Part shown: positions 38,276 through 64,000 of the stretch, piece after piece
How positions within the stretch are numbered: position 1 is the first letter of the stretch
Layout of the letters: each line of letters begins with the position of its first letter
DNA from: Syntrophales bacterium
Lineage (GTDB): Bacteria; Desulfobacterota; Syntrophia; Syntrophales; UBA2210
Direction: 5' to 3'
NCBI GenBank assembly: GCA_963662405.2
Contig: CAXXKT010000001.1
Span: forward strand, 1,024,001-1,088,000
DNA: 64,000 nucleotides
Notes under the pieces: generated by a model
The model's input: only the letters and a program-made list of their open reading frames with translations
What the model was told of the DNA's origin: nothing
Database searches by the model: none
Program-made: the position numbers and the translations under genes

Positions 38276-38283
38276 GTACGTGT

Positions 38284-38660
38284 GTCAGAGTAGATCTGTA
38301 AGCCGAGTTCTGTCTCTCTTCCCGGTTCCCCCGGAAGAGCGATGATCATTCATCTGGGACAACGATTGCCCGCTGCCTCAAGCAACCTACCCGGAAACTT
38401 CGGACGGGCCGCCCTCGAACGTTTCCCTATTTGGTCTTGCTCCGGATGGGGTTTACCATGCCTTCCCCGTCACCGGGGAAGCGGTGAGCTCTTACCTCGC
38501 CTTTTCACCCTTACCTCGATGTGTATCGAGGCGGTATCTTTTCTGTGGCACTTTCCTTAGGGTCGCCCCCAGTCGCCGTTAGCGACCATCCTGCCCTGTG
38601 GAGCTCGGACTTTCCTCCGACCCGCCGAAGCGGGCCCGCGATCATCCGATCTGCTCTGAC
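38284..38660 (-). ncRNA. rnpB: RNase P RNA, bacterial class A
   Basis: Minus strand GAGGAAAGTCCGAGC, AGTGCCACAGAAAA, GGGTGAAAAGG, GGTAAACCCC..GAGCAAG, ACAGAACTCGGCTTA; ends pair as P1. Confidence 0.95.
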
Positions 38661-39958: not shown

Positions 39959-40034
39959 TGGTGGGCCCACCTGGGTTCGAACCAGGGACCTACCGGTTAT
40001 GAGCCGGTGGCTCTTCCAGCTGAGCTATGGGCCC
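39959..40034 (-). tRNA. tRNA with CAT anticodon, most likely tRNA-Ile2 (lysidine)
   Basis: GGGCCCATAGCTCAGCTGGAAGAGCCACCGGCTCATAACCGGTAGGTCCCTGGTTCGAACCCAGGTGGGCCCACCA; 76 nt, encoded CCA, G1-C72 pair (not initiator), C4-G69 and C5-G68. Confidence 0.93.
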
Positions 40035-56953: not shown

Positions 56954-58496
56954 ATGATCAAAACGGTTGAACAGTATCTGGAGAGCTTGAATGACGGCAG
57001 GGAGGTGTGGTGCCTCGGGGAACGAGTTGCCGATGTCCGGACCCACCCGACGATCAGCACCATCATCAGGATGGCCGCTATGGACTATGTCCTGCCGAAC
57101 CATCCCGATTACCGGGATATCTTCGTGACACAGGACGAGGACGGTGAGGACATCAATTTTCTCCTCACCTCGCCGAAGTCCTCGGAAGACATGCTCCGAA
57201 GACGGGAGTGTTACATGGTCGGTATGCGATCGGGCGGGGGCGTCCTGGTGCACTGCATGGGTGCCGATGCGCTGGCCTCTTTCAGCGTGGCCGCCGAGGT
57301 GATGGACAAGAAACTGGGGACCGGGTACGTCGAGCGTGTCGAGCAGTACCGCCGGCATCTCCAGAAAAACGATCTTGCCCTGACCGGCGCCATTACCGAT
57401 GTGAAGGGTGACCGGAGCCTGCACCCCTCACAGCAGAAACAGCACCAGGACTTTTATCTGCGGGTCGTGGATCGTCAGAAGGATGGTATTATCGTTCGGG
57501 GGGCCAAGGTCCACATCAGCGCCTCTCCTTGCGCCAATGAACTCCTCTGTCTCCCCTGCCGGACCCATGGCGAGGCGGATCAGGATTATGCCCTTGCCTT
57601 TGCCGTTCCCGTCAATACCCCAGGGGTAAAGCTCCTGGCTGTGGAGCCGAATGTCCGCCTCTACGGCGAGGAATGCGAATTCGACTATCCTATGTCTGAC
57701 CACCTGCAGCCATCGGAATCGCTGGTTGTATTCGATGACGTATTCGTTCCCTGGGAACGGGTCTTCATGTGCGGTGAATGGCAGTACTCGCAGGTCCTGG
57801 GCCTATGCCTTTGCCAGCTATCACCGCCTCTTCGGCACTTGCAAGATGACGAGTACCCTCGAGACGATGACCGGCGCGGCGAGTCTGATCGCCGAATACA
57901 ACGGGGTCAGGAACGTGCCGCACGTGCGGAAGAAGCTGGCCTGGATGGCCTATATTACCGAAACGGTGCAGATGCTGGCCAAGCAGGCCTGTCTCGACCC
58001 GGTGACCGAGTTCGGCATGGACGTCATGATGCCCAACCGGATGGCCATCAACGCGTCGAAGTTCACCTATGCGAGCAACTTTCACCAGATGGTCCAGAAC
58101 ATGCAGGACATCGGGGGGGGGTTGACCACCACCGTGCCGGCCTTCCGGGATTGGAACAATCCAGAGCTGCAACCCTTTATCGAGAAATATCTGGGGGCGA
58201 AGGGTGATGTGTCGACGGAGGAACGGATCAGGATACTGCGTCTCATAAAGGATGTTACGGGAAACCACTGGGAGGTCGACACCATTCACGGCGAAGGTTC
58301 CATGGCCGCGCAGGAGATGTTCCTCTTCGGCAGCGCCAATTGGAGCAAACTCCACGCTGCGGCGCGGCGAGCAGCCCATATCGACGGGTGGCAGGATGAT
58401 TCCATTTATGGAAAGCTCCCTGTGCGGAGCGATTATGTCACCATGCCCGCTATCGATGAATCGTATGAGAGTATTGCTTCGACGGCTCAGAAGTAA
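56954..58496 (+). pseudogene. 4-hydroxybutyryl-CoA dehydratase / HpaB-family flavoprotein with a +1 frameshift near 57800
   Basis: YLESL, AITDVKGDRS, GIIVRGAK.H, VVFDDVFVPWERVFMCGE in one frame; FASYHR, DIGGG, TIHGEGS in the next; extra G in CTGGGCCTAT (57799-57801). Confidence 0.82.
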
Positions 58497-58600: not shown

Positions 58601-59200
58601 ATGATCAGGGCGATAGCACCGTATCTTGACGGCTTGAATGACGGGAGAGAGCTCTTCTGGTGTCCGGGAGAAAGGGGATCCGATGTCTTGGCTGCCTTTG
58701 CCGTTGCGGCCCAGGTCATGGACAAGGAACTGGAGACCGGGTATACGGGTCGTGTCAGGCAGTACCAGAAACCGCTCCGGGAAAAAGATCTGGCCATTAC
58801 GGCGCCATTACCGATGTGAAGGGGGATCGAAACCTCCATCCCTCGCAGCTGAAACAGCACCCGGATTACTCCCTTGCCAGCTATCATCGCCTCTTCAGTA
58901 CCTGCAGGATGATCGGAAAACTCGAAATCATCACGGGGGCGACAGCCCTCCTGGCCGAACACAACGGGGTGGAGCAGGTGAGTCCCGTCCGCAAGAAACT
59001 TGCGTGGATGGCCATCAATGCCGCGAAATACACCTATGCGAGCAATTTTTATCAGATGTGCCGGAACCTGCGGGATATCGCCGCGGTGCCGATCTTCCGA
59101 GGCTGGAGCGCCGAATGGCAGAAGTCCCGGCGACTGGGAGGAAGATCCGATATATGACATCCTCTCAACGCAAAAGGATCATCACGATCCTCCGATGCCC
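58601..59200 (+). pseudogene. Multiply deleted paralog of the upstream dehydratase-like gene
   Basis: Collinear blocks YLDGLNDGRE, VMDKELETGY, AITDVKGDRNLHPSQ, ASYHRLF, VRKKLAWMAINAAKYTYASNFYQM. Confidence 0.85.
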
Positions 59201-59392: not shown

Positions 59393-59422
59393 TTGACTTA
59401 TCGCTCAAAGATTCCGTATACT
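59393..59422 (+). promoter_or_regulatory. Sigma70-type promoter of the cytochrome operon
   Basis: TTGACT-N18-TATACT; AGGAGG RBS precedes ATG 59495. Confidence 0.6.
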
Positions 59423-59494
59423 ACGGAAAACGTAACGTGCAGCGATTGTTACCTTTCTCCATCATCCGGTTGACCTTGTCCATAGGAGGCCGCC

Positions 59495-61519
59495 ATGAAG
59501 CCGAAGTTGGTATGTGGGGTAGCCGCAGTATTTCTTTCCATTGTCTTTTTCTGCTCCGTCACCGGAGCCGCCGTCTGGAACCACCGCGATGTAAAACTGA
59601 AAAACGAACGGGGAGAACAGATCGCGCCCGATCGGAACGGCGGTGATCCGTACAGTCCGCGCCGAACGTGCGGCGGTTGTCATCCCTATTCGACCATTAC
59701 CTCGGGGTTCCACTTCCAGCAGGGGTTTGACGCCATGAGCGACACCTACAACCCCTGGGAGCCGTGGATCCTGTCCCCGGGCATGTTCGGCAAGTGGTGA
59801 CCCCCCGCGAGCAGGTCTGGCCGTGTCGCCAGCAAAAACAACGATGACCCGAAGCAGATCGATCTGTCCACGTACGACTGGATCGGTGGCTATGGGAAAC
59901 TGAACCCCGCCAAGAAGATCAAATCGCCGTCCTGCGGCTGGTGCCATCCCGGCGGGGCCTCCATGGAATACGGGAGGAAGTGGGACGGTACCCCCGATTA
60001 TTCCATGAACCTTATCGAAGGGGAACGGCGTGCCGTGAACCCTCTCGACGGGGACTATTCGTCAAACCTGACTCCCGACGGCAAGAGTCATTTCAAGGAG
60101 AGCGGTGTCGTTGAGGCCGATTGTCTCCTCTGTCATATGAAGGGGTACAGTTTCGGCGCCCGTAATCAGCAGATCAACCGGAAGAACTATCGATGGGCCG
60201 CAACCGCCGGCGCCGGACTCGGAAATATCAAGGGCGCCATCTTCACCTTTGCCGACAAGGACGCGGGCCCGGGATCGAAGGAGTTTCTCACGGGGACCTG
60301 GAACTTTTCGGACCGTCCCGTCGTGAACTATAACTGGGACAATCGAAACCTCTTTACCCGTTCCGGTCGTCTGCGGGGTGAGGCGATAGCCAAAGAGGTC
60401 GAGACAAAGAGCTGTCTCCAGTGTCACCGGGGACCGGATGCGAAGAAGGTCGGCTGGGTCCATAAACCGGAATTCGATGCCCATTTCAAGGCGGGGCTTT
60501 GGTGCACCGACTGTCACAATCTGGTGGGAGAAACCGAAAAGGAGCGGTTGCACCATCAGATCGCCAAGGGGTGGCATCCCCTGGGGAGCGTGCGGAACGA
60601 TCTCGACGGTGTGGGGATGAAGACCTGCGCGGCGTGTCACCTGGAGGGGAAATACCGGGCCACCCGACCGGGGATGCCGGATGAGGCGAAAGATCCCACG
60701 AAGGTTCATGAGGAAAGATTCCCCGATGTCATGTTTCATTTCGATCTGATCAGCTGCGCCAATTGCCATTCCACGAGGCAACCGGCCATGTCGGGCTATC
60801 TCCTTGACATGGCGATGGGGAAACAGGTCTGGTACACGGCCGGGACACGGGAGGCCATCACCTGGAGTAATGATTTCGGTATCCTGACACCCGAACCCTG
60901 GGCCCCTTGGGTCACCCGGTATGACGCACGCAACGGTCTCGGAGAGCAGTACATCCCTGTTGTCCCCAAGATTGCCCAGTGGTTCGGCGAAAAGACGGAT
61001 CACATGGAGGTCCGGCCGATCATTCTGAAATATGTGAAAAAGGCGTACGGTGCGCTGAGCGCCCCCACTCTCGCGGCTGTCAAAGATGTCACCGGCAAGG
61101 CGGTCAAGCGCCCCACTATCGCGACGGATGCGCAGATCAAAGAGATGATCGAGTCACTTACAGAGATGGGGTTTCATAATGTGGTCTTCGTTTCCGATAA
61201 GATATACGAACTGAAGGACGGGACCGTGGTCTCCTACGAAGACCACCTCACGGCCCATCCCCATAACTTCCCCGTTCACCACAATATCGTCCCCATCGAC
61301 AGGGACGTGACATACGGATCGAGAGGAAAGCCTGACGGGTGTTACGACTGTCATTCCGATACGTCGACATTCTTCACCAGGATGCTGGTTCGAAATCCGG
61401 GGCGTTTCCTGGTTGAGGACTACCCGACCCCCAAAGAGCCGAATGCGGAGCCTCAGATGTATCAATGGGGGTTTAAAGAGGTGCCGATACCCGATGAAAT
61501 TACGGACGGCAAAAAATAG
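59495..61519 (+). CDS. Secreted octaheme cytochrome c, probable selenoprotein (Sec102), 674 aa
   Basis: ORFs 59495-59800 and 59963-61519 are in the same frame, joined by TGA (59798-59800) plus 54 open codons containing CGWCH; 8 CxxCH in total; signal peptide; SECIS-like hairpin. Confidence 0.82.
59801..59833 (+). promoter_or_regulatory. Putative bacterial SECIS element
   Basis: CTGGC-CGTGTC-GCCAG stem-loop, loop 22 nt after TGA with G at loop position 2; also contains GCAGGTCTG as in the E. coli fdhF SECIS apex. Confidence 0.6.
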
Positions 61520-62258
61520 CGGCCTCTATCTGTGGCGATTTTCTCTGGCGGTTCTCTGTCTTCTCTTCGGTGTCCCCGCTGCTGTGGGCGCCGCGGAGGG
61601 AGACCCGGCCGTCATAACGGCGCGAGAGGCACATCGTATGATGCAGGAGCGGGGTGATATCACCTTCATCAATACCATGAGTGTCATCGAATGCCGGGAT
61701 CACCGGATTCCCGGATCGGTGTGCATCCCCTGCCCGAAATTCGAGGGGGAAATATCAAACATCGTGAAAGACAGGAATCGCCCCCTCGTTCTCTACTGTG
61801 CGAGTACCGGCTGCCATCGGAGTATGCATGCGGCCCGCACGGCCCTCGATCTCGGGTACCGGAATGTCTTTGTCCTTGAGGGTGGTCTGCCCGGATGGAA
61901 AGGGGCGGGTTTCTCGATTGAATACGAACGGCGGGTCCCCCGCACGGGGATCGCATCCATCAAACCGAAGGTGCTGAACCGGTGGGTAGCCGATAAAAGG
62001 GATATCCTGATTCTTGATATCCGGTCCCGGGATCTCTTCGACGCAGAGCATATCCCCGGGGCGGTCAATCGTCCCCTCGATGAACTTGAAGACACCTATC
62101 GGGAACTGCCGATGGACAAACGGATCATTGTGGTGGACGAACAGGGACATCGATCCTTCATCGCCGCATGCTATCTGTACGAGCGGGGGCTGGTGGATGT
62201 CCAACGTCTCTTCGGCGGGATGCAGGACTGGAGGTCCTTCATGAAAAGGGAGGAGTAG
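61494..62258 (+). CDS. Exported tandem rhodanese-domain protein
   Basis: Signal peptide; HRIPGS..YCASTGCHRS..LEGGLPGW; second domain LDIRS..HIPGA..VDEQGHRS..LFGGMQDW. Confidence 0.88.
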   Translation: MKLRTAKNSGLYLWRFSLAVLCLLFGVPAAVGAAEGDPAVITAREAHRMMQERGDITFINTMSVIECRDHRIPGSVCIPCPKFEGEISNIVKDRNRPLVLYCASTGCHRSMHAARTALDLGYRNVFVLEGGLPGWKGAGFSIEYERRVPRTGIASIKPKVLNRWVADKRDILILDIRSRDLFDAEHIPGAVNRPLDELEDTYRELPMDKRIIVVDEQGHRSFIAACYLYERGLVDVQRLFGGMQDWRSFMKREE

Positions 62259-64000
62259 ATGAACACCGCCTTGTCGATCGGAAGATGGATGCGTCATCTT
62301 CTCATAATCGCAGTGACAGTCGTTCTGGCCTGCCCTTCCGTGTCGGTTTATGCAGCCGGATACAGTATGTATGTTGCTACGGAACCTGTCCCGGCGGCCT
62401 CGGTCGACTGCCTCTCCTGTCATGATGATTACCTGTTTCGGACGGCCTACCCCGCCTCGGTACACGGCACCCTCGGGTGTGCGAGCTGTCATGATGGTAT
62501 CGTGGATAGCGAGAGCCACATGACGGGAGCGGAACGCTCCACGCTCACGGTCTGCGGGAGCTGCCACGCCGTCATAGCGGAGGAATACCGGCTCAATTAT
62601 CATTATCTGCACCAGGATTTTCAGTGTTACGACTGCCACCGTAATATCCACGCCGTCCAGAGTAGAGATACATCGATGAAACAGGCGACACTCCGGCAGT
62701 GCACCGAATGTCATGCCAACGAGGAATACGCCCATTCGGGACACGGCATCGCCGTCGCGGAGGGGAATGAGGATGCGGCGACCTGTTCGGACTGTCATGG
62801 GCTCCACAGCACGCGGGTCTACCATACGTCCCAGCAGGAATATCCCGCCGAGGCGCGGGAGTTCTATACTCGGACCTGCGTCAGGTGCCATGACGATCGG
62901 GGGATGATGGTCCGCAACGACCTCTCGACGTCCACCGTTGCGTCCTACCGGAGGACCTATCACGGGAAGGTCCAGGACATTGGTCACCCCACCCTGGTTG
63001 CGGGGTGTGCCGACTGTCATACCTCGCATAACATCCTCCCGAAGGATGATCCCGCGTCATCGATCCATCCCGACAATCTGGTCGAGAATTGTGGGAAGTG
63101 TCACACCGGCTTCCATCCGCGGTTCGTCGCCTATCAGGCTCACCCCGATTTCAGCAACCGGGAGCGATATCCCACGCTCTACTGGACAAACGTCTTGATG
63201 ATCGCGCTTCTGGGGGGAACCTTTCTCTTCTTCTGGGTGCATACCTTCCTCTGGTGGCGAAAGACGTATTGGGATAAACACTACATGGAAAAGATGGGGA
63301 TCAGGCCGCGCCTCCCCATGTCGGATACGGAAAGCCTGCAATCCATCGAACGGTTCTCGCGAAAAGATATCGTTGTCCACATCATCCTGGTCATCTCTTT
63401 CCTGACCCTCGTGGCCACGGGATTTCCCCTCAAGTATCATGATGCGCCCTGGGCACGGATCTTTGTCGAGCTGTGGGGCGGTGTTTCCCTCGCCGGGATC
63501 TTTCACCGGGTGGCGGCGGTGGTCCTCTTCGCCCTCTTTTTCTATATCCTGGTGCGGTCCGTCGGCTATCTCTTCCCGAGAAAGGCGGAGACACAGGGAT
63601 GGGTGGATCGTCTGTTTGGTGTGGAATCCCTCTTTTTCAACCGGAAGGACTGGCAGGACATGAAGGGGATGTTCCGGTGGTTCTTCGACCGGGGAGAACA
63701 ACCGCGATTTGATCGGTGGACCTACTGGGAGAAGTTCGATTTTCTCGCCGTCTTCTGGGGGATGGTGATCATCGGCGGCTCGGGGATATTCCTGATGGTT
63801 CCTGAATGGACCTCATATCTTTTCCCCGGTTGGATTCTCAATGTCGCGGCCCTGTTGCACTCGGAAGAGGCGCTCCTGGCCGCGCTCTTCATATTTACCG
63901 TGCATTTCTTCAATACCCATCTGATCCCGAAGAAATTCCCCATGGATCGAACGATATTCACGGGGAGGATAGCGCTTCATGAGCTCTATGAAGAGAAACG
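62259..64000 (+). CDS. CbcL-like nonaheme cytochrome c fused to a membrane cytochrome b (FdnI/HydC-like); truncated by the window end
   Basis: Open frame from ATG 62259 to the end; CLSCH, CASCH, CGSCH, CYDCH, CTECH, CSDCH, CVRCH, CADCH, CGKCH; TM part with VHIILV, FHR, FDRWTYWEKFDFLAVFWG, LHSEEALLA..VHFFNTHL. Confidence 0.9.
   Translation, partial: MNTALSIGRWMRHLLIIAVTVVLACPSVSVYAAGYSMYVATEPVPAASVDCLSCHDDYLFRTAYPASVHGTLGCASCHDGIVDSESHMTGAERSTLTVCGSCHAVIAEEYRLNYHYLHQDFQCYDCHRNIHAVQSRDTSMKQATLRQCTECHANEEYAHSGHGIAVAEGNEDAATCSDCHGLHSTRVYHTSQQEYPAEAREFYTRTCVRCHDDRGMMVRNDLSTSTVASYRRTYHGKVQDIGHPTLVAGCADCHTSHNILPKDDPASSIHPDNLVENCGKCHTGFHPRFVAYQAHPDFSNRERYPTLYWTNVLMIALLGGTFLFFWVHTFLWWRKTYWDKHYMEKMGIRPRLPMSDTESLQSIERFSRKDIVVHIILVISFLTLVATGFPLKYHDAPWARIFVELWGGVSLAGIFHRVAAVVLFALFFYILVRSVGYLFPRKAETQGWVDRLFGVESLFFNRKDWQDMKGMFRWFFDRGEQPRFDRWTYWEKFDFLAVFWGMVIIGGSGIFLMVPEWTSYLFPGWILNVAALLHSEEALLAALFIFTVHFFNTHLIPKKFPMDRTIFTGRIALHELYEEK

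Follow-up and report, generated by a model that had tools for sequence, protein, structure and literature searches.

Multiheme cytochromes that carry selenocysteine (Sec) have been experimentally grounded as an enzyme class only since 2026, through MccSep (ExtKL, GSU2937-2936) of Geobacter sulfurreducens. In the available part of its description, MccSep is a pentaheme, tetrameric periplasmic polysulfide reductase whose Sec325, located in an Ig-like domain at the C-terminus, attacks the substrate beside heme 2, ligated by His and Cys (PMC13510729). The same text reports that MccSep also reduces selenite, with polysulfide preferred about sevenfold, and that the rhodanese ExtH is encoded in its cluster (PMC13510729). 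According to an excerpt of another study, the ext cluster was first tied to selenite and tellurite reduction (PMC5877670). The locus considered here lies in a Syntrophales bacterium (UBA2210; three-contig assembly GCA_963662405.2), within a stretch of 64,000 nt of contig CAXXKT010000001.1 that is referred to below as the window. Positions 59495-61519 of its forward strand are almost certainly one mis-split gene for an exported octaheme cytochrome c with Sec at residue 102. The initial annotation of this DNA had named ExtKL as the precedent for a multiheme selenoprotein, and that precedent is real, being the protein characterized as MccSep (available part of PMC13510729).

A second system for comparison is octaheme tetrathionate reductase (OTR) of Shewanella oneidensis (1sp3), which has eight CxxCH motifs. 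Work by Mowat and coworkers in 2004 is said to place Lys56 as a ligand and Cys64 near heme 2 in OTR. The table of a 2026 selenoproteome review, in the part available, includes TIGR04315 (OTR family), NF040886 (ExtKL/MccSep) and NF041027 (GSU2204 family) as multiheme selenoprotein entries and lists the OTR-family selenoprotein as GenBank-annotated only (PMC13188914). Judging from gene sequences, Sec-type OTRs are common in Desulfobacterota. TIGR04315 is found in 84 of the 401 genomes of a phylum sample, and 28 of the 67 match rows above its cut-off carry one in-frame TGA. At 20 OTR-family loci (L064-L083), the motif NNF[U/C] has Sec in 8 and Cys in 12, with LGK 8-9 residues earlier.

In the window, a 101-aa open reading frame (ORF; 59495-59800), which ends in SPGMFGKW followed by TGA, and a 518-aa ORF (59963-61519) share one frame. 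When the TGA at 59798-59800 is translated as Sec, a single uninterrupted product of 674 residues results, with residue 102 as its only Sec and a stop codon at 61517-61519. The ORF listing and the translation thus reproduce what the initial annotation had read: a frame open for 54 codons past the TGA, with a heme motif, running into the 518-aa ORF, and a read-through product of 674 residues with eight CxxCH motifs. Heme motif 1 is CGGCH (residues 59-63, 59669-59683), and its C59, C62 and H63 are invariant in a 55-sequence alignment (A1). Motif 2 is CGWCH (147-151, 59933-59947). Motifs 3 to 8 are all invariant in the same alignment and are CLLCH (210-214, 60122-60136), CLQCH (307-311, 60413-60427), CTDCH (337-341, 60503-60517), CAACH (378-382, 60626-60640), CANCH (421-425, 60755-60769) and CYDCH (616-620, 61340-61354). 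Sec102, in the motif FGKW-U-PP, is located between heme motifs 1 and 2, 43 residues past the first Cys of motif 1 and 45 before motif 2. The mature protein has no Cys beyond the CxxCH motifs; two additional Cys are found in the signal peptide.

The 54 codons that annotation leaves as noncoding (59801-59962) contain the invariant residues K114 and Y127-D128-W129 in addition to heme motif 2. None of the start codons ATG, GTG and TTG occurs in frame from the TGA up to 59963, though a heme motif sits there. A Shine-Dalgarno sequence, GGAGG (59485-59489), can be read 5-6 nt ahead of the ATG at 59495, and a comparable site is absent in the sequence preceding the ATG at 59963. Sequence and model predict an N-terminal signal peptide of approximately residues 1-25 (59495-59575; hydrophobic helix 3-22), the cleavage site being approximate. 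It is present on the first ORF only and is the sole export signal for the whole protein; the 518-aa ORF, as had been noted initially, has neither a signal peptide nor a clear ribosome-binding site. A sigma-70-like promoter match, TTGACT-18-TATACT (59393-59422, forward strand), lies about 70 nt upstream of the start with 10 of 12 positions matched, and the match is weak, as 2 such sites were found against 1.9 expected in shuffled sequence.

These features bear on the reading in which the UGA is a true stop, giving a 101-aa monoheme protein and a separate C-terminal protein, or is read through with Trp, Cys or Arg. Gene callers do yield exactly those pieces (P0002 of 518 aa and P0148 of 101 aa). 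However, 54 conserved codons, a heme motif among them, contain no start codon, and the C-terminal piece lacks a signal peptide and thus could not reach the periplasmic heme-attachment machinery. Moreover, the alternative residue in sister sequences is Cys rather than Trp or Arg, and the genome has the full Sec machinery together with a hairpin resembling a selenocysteine insertion sequence (SECIS), both of which are described below. A true stop or a read-through with another amino acid is therefore very improbable.

The TGA recurs in relatives. When 41 related genomes were searched in six frames, 12 proved to contain the family, with one TGA within the match in G000 (the genome under study), G009, G015, G020, G029 (70-86% identity) and G030 (53%). 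In an order-wide set of 339 genomes the family was found in 91, among which G321 has a further TGA form. A search for related loci, which returned two loci from genome contigs and one from metagenome contigs, brought two more TGA forms, one in a Desulfomonilia metagenome-assembled genome and one on a metagenome contig. The TGA stands at the same column in all nine close Sec-type sequences, as FGKW-U-PP and in one case as FGKG-U-TP. In the phylum sample of 401 genomes, a relative is present in 57 (E <= 1e-15), and 30 of the 64 match rows, in 30 genomes, carry one TGA. Eight of the nine TGA-bearing loci fetched from this sample have GK[WFM]-U-PP at the same column; the TGA of the remaining one (L098) was not placed. 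The distant Sec forms include proteins of 865-927 aa with 8 CxxCH motifs and forms with 15. Three loci of the latter type (L094, L096, L097) have the GKWUPP motif in open frames of 1140-1652 codons, untrimmed to the gene ends.

Selection on the gene was estimated by the Nei-Gojobori method for the window gene against six TGA-type orthologs. The ratio of nonsynonymous to synonymous change is 0.07-0.15 over codons 30-101, 0.00-0.14 over the 54 codons and 0.07-0.12 over the remainder, and the TGA is retained in six of six aligned orthologs despite synonymous differences of 34-70%. The letters themselves are found in other data. Contigs from an independent 2016 sediment study (run X4) cover 59762-59846 with no differing letter, so that the sense codon whose appearance in reads would have spoken against Sec is not seen in that study's contig. 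No variants are listed at 59798-59800 in four runs, two of which (X1 and X2) could themselves be the source sample. No RNA run was found to contain the stretch.

The family as a whole is more varied at this column. The initial annotation had expected Cys or TGA in the homologs. TGA does recur, and Cys is found in the nearest full-length homologs (P0028, P0035 and the GKGC forms), which are sisters of both Sec lineages, but across 136 family sequences the column holds Sec in 8, Cys in 17 and Gln, Ser, Leu, Gly or another residue in 111. This set contains some duplicates between protein entries and locus translations. In a midpoint-rooted FastTree phylogeny, two GKWC proteins form the sister group of the GKWU clade, and the GKGU form is nested among GKGC forms. 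Sequences without Cys or Sec fall into group II (GKW[Q/S/L]), which is a half of the tree by itself, and into two derived clades, GKGG and GKGF. On this phylogeny, Cys or Sec marks one half of the family tree and not the entire family.

The variable column and the frame errors of the assembly (see below) would suit a second reading, in which the gene is broken and the TGA arose by nonsense mutation or by faulty sequencing. Against this stand the TGA at the same column in nine close and eight distant relatives from separate genomes, the purifying selection on either side and across the 54 codons, and the identical letters in the independent study's contig. In addition, the errors elsewhere in the assembly are indels and not substitutions. 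A broken gene is accordingly hardly credible as an explanation, and decoding of the UGA at 59798 as Sec, in a genuine selenoprotein gene, is very likely on the comparative sequence evidence.

The machinery that such decoding needs was among the checks proposed initially (selA, selB, selC, selD), and all four genes are present, with selD split between frames. The matches for selB (363 bits), selA (607 bits), tRNA-Sec (75.6 bits) and selD all exceed their cut-offs; selD is of the Sec type and itself contains a TGA (GAGUACK). The selA gene is on the reverse strand of the same contig (G000:C1:1010511-1011875), about 12-13 kb before the window and about 72 kb upstream of the operon, and selB, selD and tRNA-Sec are placed on contig 3. 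The genome also has four FdhA-like genes with one TGA apiece.

Downstream of the UGA is a SECIS-like hairpin, CUGGC-CGUGUC-GCCAG (59817-59832, forward strand), which extends from +20 to +35 counted from the U of the UGA and has GU in its apical loop. The U at +19 could bulge, given pairing of G at +18 with C at +36. The stem-loop is common to all nine close Sec genes. At the corresponding place, the distant Sec genes have either GCAGCC-AGUU-GGCUGC (the L094, L096 and L097 type) or (UUU)CGCC-AGUU-GGCG(AAA). The changes are compensatory over three clades whose encoded peptides differ (SGRVAS, SSQLAA and RQLAKK). Once a single two-codon gap had been shifted by hand, RNAalifold, applied to 16 Sec-type genes whose sequences are mutually related, gave a 5-bp stem in which 75 of 80 cells pair. 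Covariation is seen at three of the five pairs: three standard pair types occur at 20-35 and at 22-33, and two at 21-34. In register, the fraction of paired cells is 0.85, compared with 0.21-0.65 when the partner is slid. On the codon-based alignment before the gap was moved, RNAalifold found no structure because a two-codon deletion had shifted the 5' arm out of register. A scan of the window against Rfam at the gathering threshold returned nothing at the TGA. The only Rfam matches in the window are a class A RNase P RNA (338 bits, 38283-38657) and one tRNA (39962-40034), both on the reverse strand.

Several observations weigh against Sec decoding or against the hairpin as its signal. The five most distant sequences are in register only by means of the gap placed by hand, and the hairpin is also kept in two of three Cys forms. 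In the window, the 63 nt that follow the UGA fold no more stably than shuffled sequences (z +1.22), and by mean minimum free energy Sec genes (-8.7 kcal/mol) do not stand apart from homologs lacking Sec (-10.7 kcal/mol). Folding energy was dropped as evidence for the hairpin for lack of such separation and of any excess over shuffles. The gene was not found in the seven other genomes of the same genus. Finally, selD (G000:C3:552135-553065) shifts frame at a GGGG run (positions ~1077-1080 of locus L085), and if this shift were real, Sec synthesis in the organism would fail. Dropping one G from the run would restore ...LSVTG-TVHPDRV..., and the frame change is probably a homopolymer error in the assembly rather than a damaged gene. 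A second frame break is found within the window on the forward strand, where a gene of the HpaB (4-hydroxyphenylacetate hydroxylase) family is split over frames near 57770-57800, with HpaB_N in 56954-58207 and the HpaB C-terminal domain in 57651-58496. A degraded, short second copy of the HpaB-like N-terminus lies at 58601-58819 and beyond (ORF region 58601-59160, forward strand). The frame break and the degraded copy may be either assembly indels or pseudogenes. Taken together, the frame changes in selD and the HpaB-like gene make residual indel error in the three-contig assembly look likely.

Searches with the protein sequence place it in none of the NCBIfam families of known multiheme selenoproteins. 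Pfam finds generic multiheme domains only. TIGR04315, NF040886 and NF041027 are not among the 14 NCBIfam families listed at E <= 10, and a search of the genome with TIGR04315 (cut-off 375 bits) gave no match at E <= 1e-20. A sequence search of the Protein Data Bank gave no meaningful match, in copies that may predate release of the MccSep coordinates. An AlphaFold2 model built from the 55-sequence alignment, with a mean predicted local distance difference test score (pLDDT) of 80.8 and a predicted template modeling score of 0.83, has 1sp3 as its sole Foldseek match at E <= 0.001 (E 1.7e-4). VIA-align, which is independent of Foldseek, aligned 335 of 436 residues of 1sp3_A with model residues 28-674 (Z 10.0, root-mean-square deviation 4.4); the second-ranking chain reached Z 3.9. 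Similarly, hhalign of the family against 20 OTR-family genes of the phylum brought all eight heme motifs into register, at a probability of 94.6% (E 6.5e-8). On the profile and model comparisons, the protein belongs to a very distant offshoot of the OTR lineage and is not a TIGR04315 member. The comparison with ExtKL and Otr models that had been suggested initially is thus borne out in part, as remote OTR homology appears in hhalign and in the fold but neither NF040886 nor TIGR04315 is matched.

The protein and OTR are alike in having eight CxxCH motifs in the same order and, by the model, the same fold. They differ in that the window protein has about 15% identity to 1sp3 and exceeds it in length by about 230 residues, chiefly through a beta-rich insertion at approximately residues 430-600. 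The Cys or Sec of the OTR family lies 40-41 residues past the first Cys of motif 1, compared with 43 in the window protein, and the gap from Sec to motif 2 is 10 residues there and 45 here. The motif around Sec is LGK-x7/8-NNF[U/C] in the OTR family and GK[WFM]UPP in the window family, which also has conserved operon partners in the rhodanese and the CbcL-type protein.

The likeness to MccSep is of another kind. Both are periplasmic multiheme Sec cytochromes whose genes are split by a UGA, with a downstream stem-loop, a rhodanese nearby and Pro directly after Sec (available part of PMC13510729). However, MccSep has five hemes in about 49 kDa, Sec325 and a heme-2-ligating Cys239 according to the same text, whereas the window protein has eight hemes, Sec102 and no Cys outside the heme motifs. 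The protein also does not qualify for the GSU2204 family (NF041027). By heme number, Sec position, ligand Cys and hidden Markov model, the window protein has a setting like that of MccSep but is not a member of its family.

Several residues may bear on the role of Sec102. Outside the motifs, the invariant residues of alignment A1 include seven His for eight hemes, as well as K114 and K492; K100 is unconserved and is replaced by N, R, Q, S or G. The presence of seven invariant non-motif His for eight hemes favours a predicted enzyme rather than a wire. Heme motif 2 varies with residue 102: it is CGWCH where residue 102 is Sec, Cys, Gln, Ser or Leu after Trp, CGWTH where it is Sec or Cys after Gly, and AGNLH, PGWTH or SGWMH where it is Gly or Phe. 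Covariation of motif 2 and the His count are indirect hints that residue 102 may be coupled to heme 2. At eight loci (L029-L031, L041-L043, L058 and L061), motif 2 is degenerate with its His retained, and the GKGG and GKGF forms hence have seven CxxCH motifs.

The gene is followed by two others on the same strand. The first (61494-62258), whose start overlaps the end of the cytochrome gene by 26 nt, encodes a periplasmic tandem rhodanese of 254 aa with a signal peptide (Pfam Rhodanese, 1.6e-29, in two stretches). Domain 1 has the Cys loop LYCASTGCHRS and domain 2 has no Cys at that place. Domain 1 matches the LYCAU family NF041203 weakly (62.6 bits, cut-off 115), with LYCAS at the corresponding place, and none of the orthologs that were read has a TGA at the LYCAS site. 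The second gene (62259-64000, continuing 163 nt past the window end) encodes a CbcL-type quinol oxidase of 634 aa with nine CxxCH motifs and a cytochrome b membrane domain. Ni_hydr_CYTB matches residues 365-548 with 29.5 bits, just missing the Pfam cut-off of 30.1, and six or seven hydrophobic stretches follow the signal peptide. In tblastn searches, the order octaheme cytochrome, rhodanese, cytochrome c/b is kept in nearly all fetched loci of the order, whichever residue occupies column 102. No rhodanese or cytochrome c/b gene was found by tblastn in the distant Sec loci L094-L104, whose flanks extend only about 1.5 kb. The genes downstream of the trio are unrelated to it, one resembling acyl-CoA synthetase genes and others encoding ABC transporters, and no metalloid-resistance genes flank it.

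Two described systems resemble this arrangement. In Wolinella succinogenes, Sud-PsrABC uses a periplasmic carrier of rhodanese fold that hands polysulfide sulfur to a quinol-linked reductase, Psr being a molybdopterin enzyme with iron-sulfur and NrfD-type subunits. The logic would be the same in both, except that the reductase in the window would be a heme/Sec protein and the quinol oxidase a cytochrome c/b fusion. CbcL (GSU0274) of G. sulfurreducens has nine c-hemes fused to a membrane di-heme b-type domain (available part of PMC9129911). The third gene of the trio is likened to CbcL by architecture alone, that is, by nine c-type motifs and a b-type domain. CbcL feeds extracellular electron transfer, whereas the window protein is dedicated to a three-gene operon. 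From its sequence, the trio looks like a self-contained chain in which quinol is linked through nine c-hemes with the octaheme enzyme and a sulfur carrier stands at its side.

A Sec cytochrome encoded with a sulfur carrier and a membrane quinol oxidase suggests a respiratory enzyme for a sulfur compound, probably one that is as yet unannotated. From gene context and remote OTR homology we infer that Sec102 may be a catalytic residue or a heme ligand in a sulfur or selenium oxidoreductase. The explanation that best joins the evidence, and that is favoured by a modest margin, is that of an OTR relative with Sec102 in an operon with a rhodanese and a CbcL-type protein that would serve quinol-linked sulfur reduction. 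The more specific working model, in which menaquinol would supply the octaheme enzyme with electrons for reducing rhodanese-borne sulfane sulfur, stands at about even chances. In this model the UGA would be decoded by the SelA/SelB/tRNA-Sec system, aided by the hairpin 20-35 nt downstream, and the octaheme gene would be cotranscribed with the tandem rhodanese and CbcL-type genes. The membrane CbcL-type protein would oxidize menaquinol, and electrons would travel through its nine c-hemes to the octaheme enzyme, if the direction is as supposed. The rhodanese would deliver sulfane sulfur, presumably as persulfide or polysulfide, to that enzyme. Sec102, which by analogy with the reported position of Cys64 in OTR would lie near active-site heme 2, would act as the nucleophile that attacks the S-S bond; the Se-S adduct would then be reduced by the heme chain, and sulfide would be released. 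The furthest-reaching form of the proposal remains tentative and is somewhat doubtful: the trio may be a molybdenum-free, selenium-dependent menaquinol:polysulfide/persulfide oxidoreductase of OTR descent, which would provide syntrophic Syntrophales with a hidden outlet for sulfur respiration.

Several points count against this functional proposal or against the equation of Sec102 with the OTR residue. The model, which lacks hemes, falls to a pLDDT of 44-48 around residues 70-100. The segment between hemes 1 and 2 has no convincing OTR alignment, and the GK...NNFC motif of OTR is absent from it. When the heme 1 to heme 3 segment of the Cys/Sec forms was aligned with the OTR N-terminus by hhalign, the probability was at most 52% and the match fell in the wrong region; with the failure of this alignment, column-level equivalence of Sec102 and the OTR Cys/Sec was not established. 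The 111 of 136 family members without Cys or Sec at the column retain the same operon, so that the residue is not needed for the function of every member. To our knowledge, the physiological substrate of OTR is itself unsettled.

In a rival reading, the protein is a real selenoprotein that acts as OTR does in vitro, reducing tetrathionate/thiosulfate or nitrite/hydroxylamine at an open heme, with the rhodanese as an accessory and Sec tuning or protecting the site. OTR is the only related solved fold, and group II retains the operon without Cys or Sec, so heme-centred chemistry may suffice. The discussion of the MccSep paper, in the part available, also cites OTR acting on nitrogen and sulfur substrates (PMC13510729). 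However, the protein has no TIGR04315 match even at E <= 10, and the conserved periplasmic rhodanese next door points to handling of sulfane sulfur. Sec, moreover, usually stands in for a catalytic Cys. An OTR-like activity is thus unlikely, although of the alternatives it has the most to recommend it. In a further reading, the protein is a real selenoprotein but the operon serves selenium or metalloid chemistry, such as reduction or detoxification of selenite or tellurite, and not sulfur respiration. Rhodaneses are capable of carrying selenium, which would fit, as would the reduction of selenite by MccSep (available part of PMC13510729) and the early link of the ext cluster to selenite and tellurite (excerpt of PMC5877670). 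MccSep nevertheless favours polysulfide about sevenfold in the description cited, and the trio is flanked by no metalloid-resistance genes. A metalloid operon is therefore improbable, and sulfur reduction coupled to quinol is preferred.

The family is well represented in databases in fragmentary form. The entries include P0002 and P0003 (518 aa, 'hypothetical protein'), about 20 more of 468-553 aa, and the N-terminal P0148 (101 aa), in keeping with the initial expectation that pipelines would call two hypothetical proteins. In an all-against-all search, the representative clusters number 676 with a limit of E <= 1e-3 and 71 with one of E <= 1e-30, and several clusters begin directly past query residue 102, as expected of split Sec genes. 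A literature search, with subscription journals and the supplements of PMC13510729 outside its scope, found only the MccSep paper and general reviews and no description of a GKxUPP octaheme selenoprotein. By its sequences, this is a widespread, unannotated, OTR-related family of predicted Sec/Cys multiheme cytochromes.

The locus represents a second lineage of multiheme cytochrome selenoproteins, unrelated in sequence to MccSep and related to OTR, with Sec in the same kind of setting (periplasm, rhodanese and quinol-linked chain). If the furthest-reaching proposal is correct, the GK[WFM]UPP cytochromes, with 8 and 15 hemes and present in about 30 of 401 sampled Desulfobacterota genomes, would be among the larger selenoprotein families missing from catalogues and from annotation pipelines. 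The family's natural series of Sec, Cys and Gln/Ser/Leu/Gly at the column, with heme motif 2 changing alongside, offers a ready test of the contribution of Sec. If the proposed function is true, OTR-type enzymes, with a physiological role so far unclear, would acquire a plausible one together with a catalytic residue, the mis-annotation that splits such genes across many genomes and metagenomes would be put right, and syntrophic degraders of fatty acids and aromatic compounds would gain a sulfur- or selenium-dependent electron sink.

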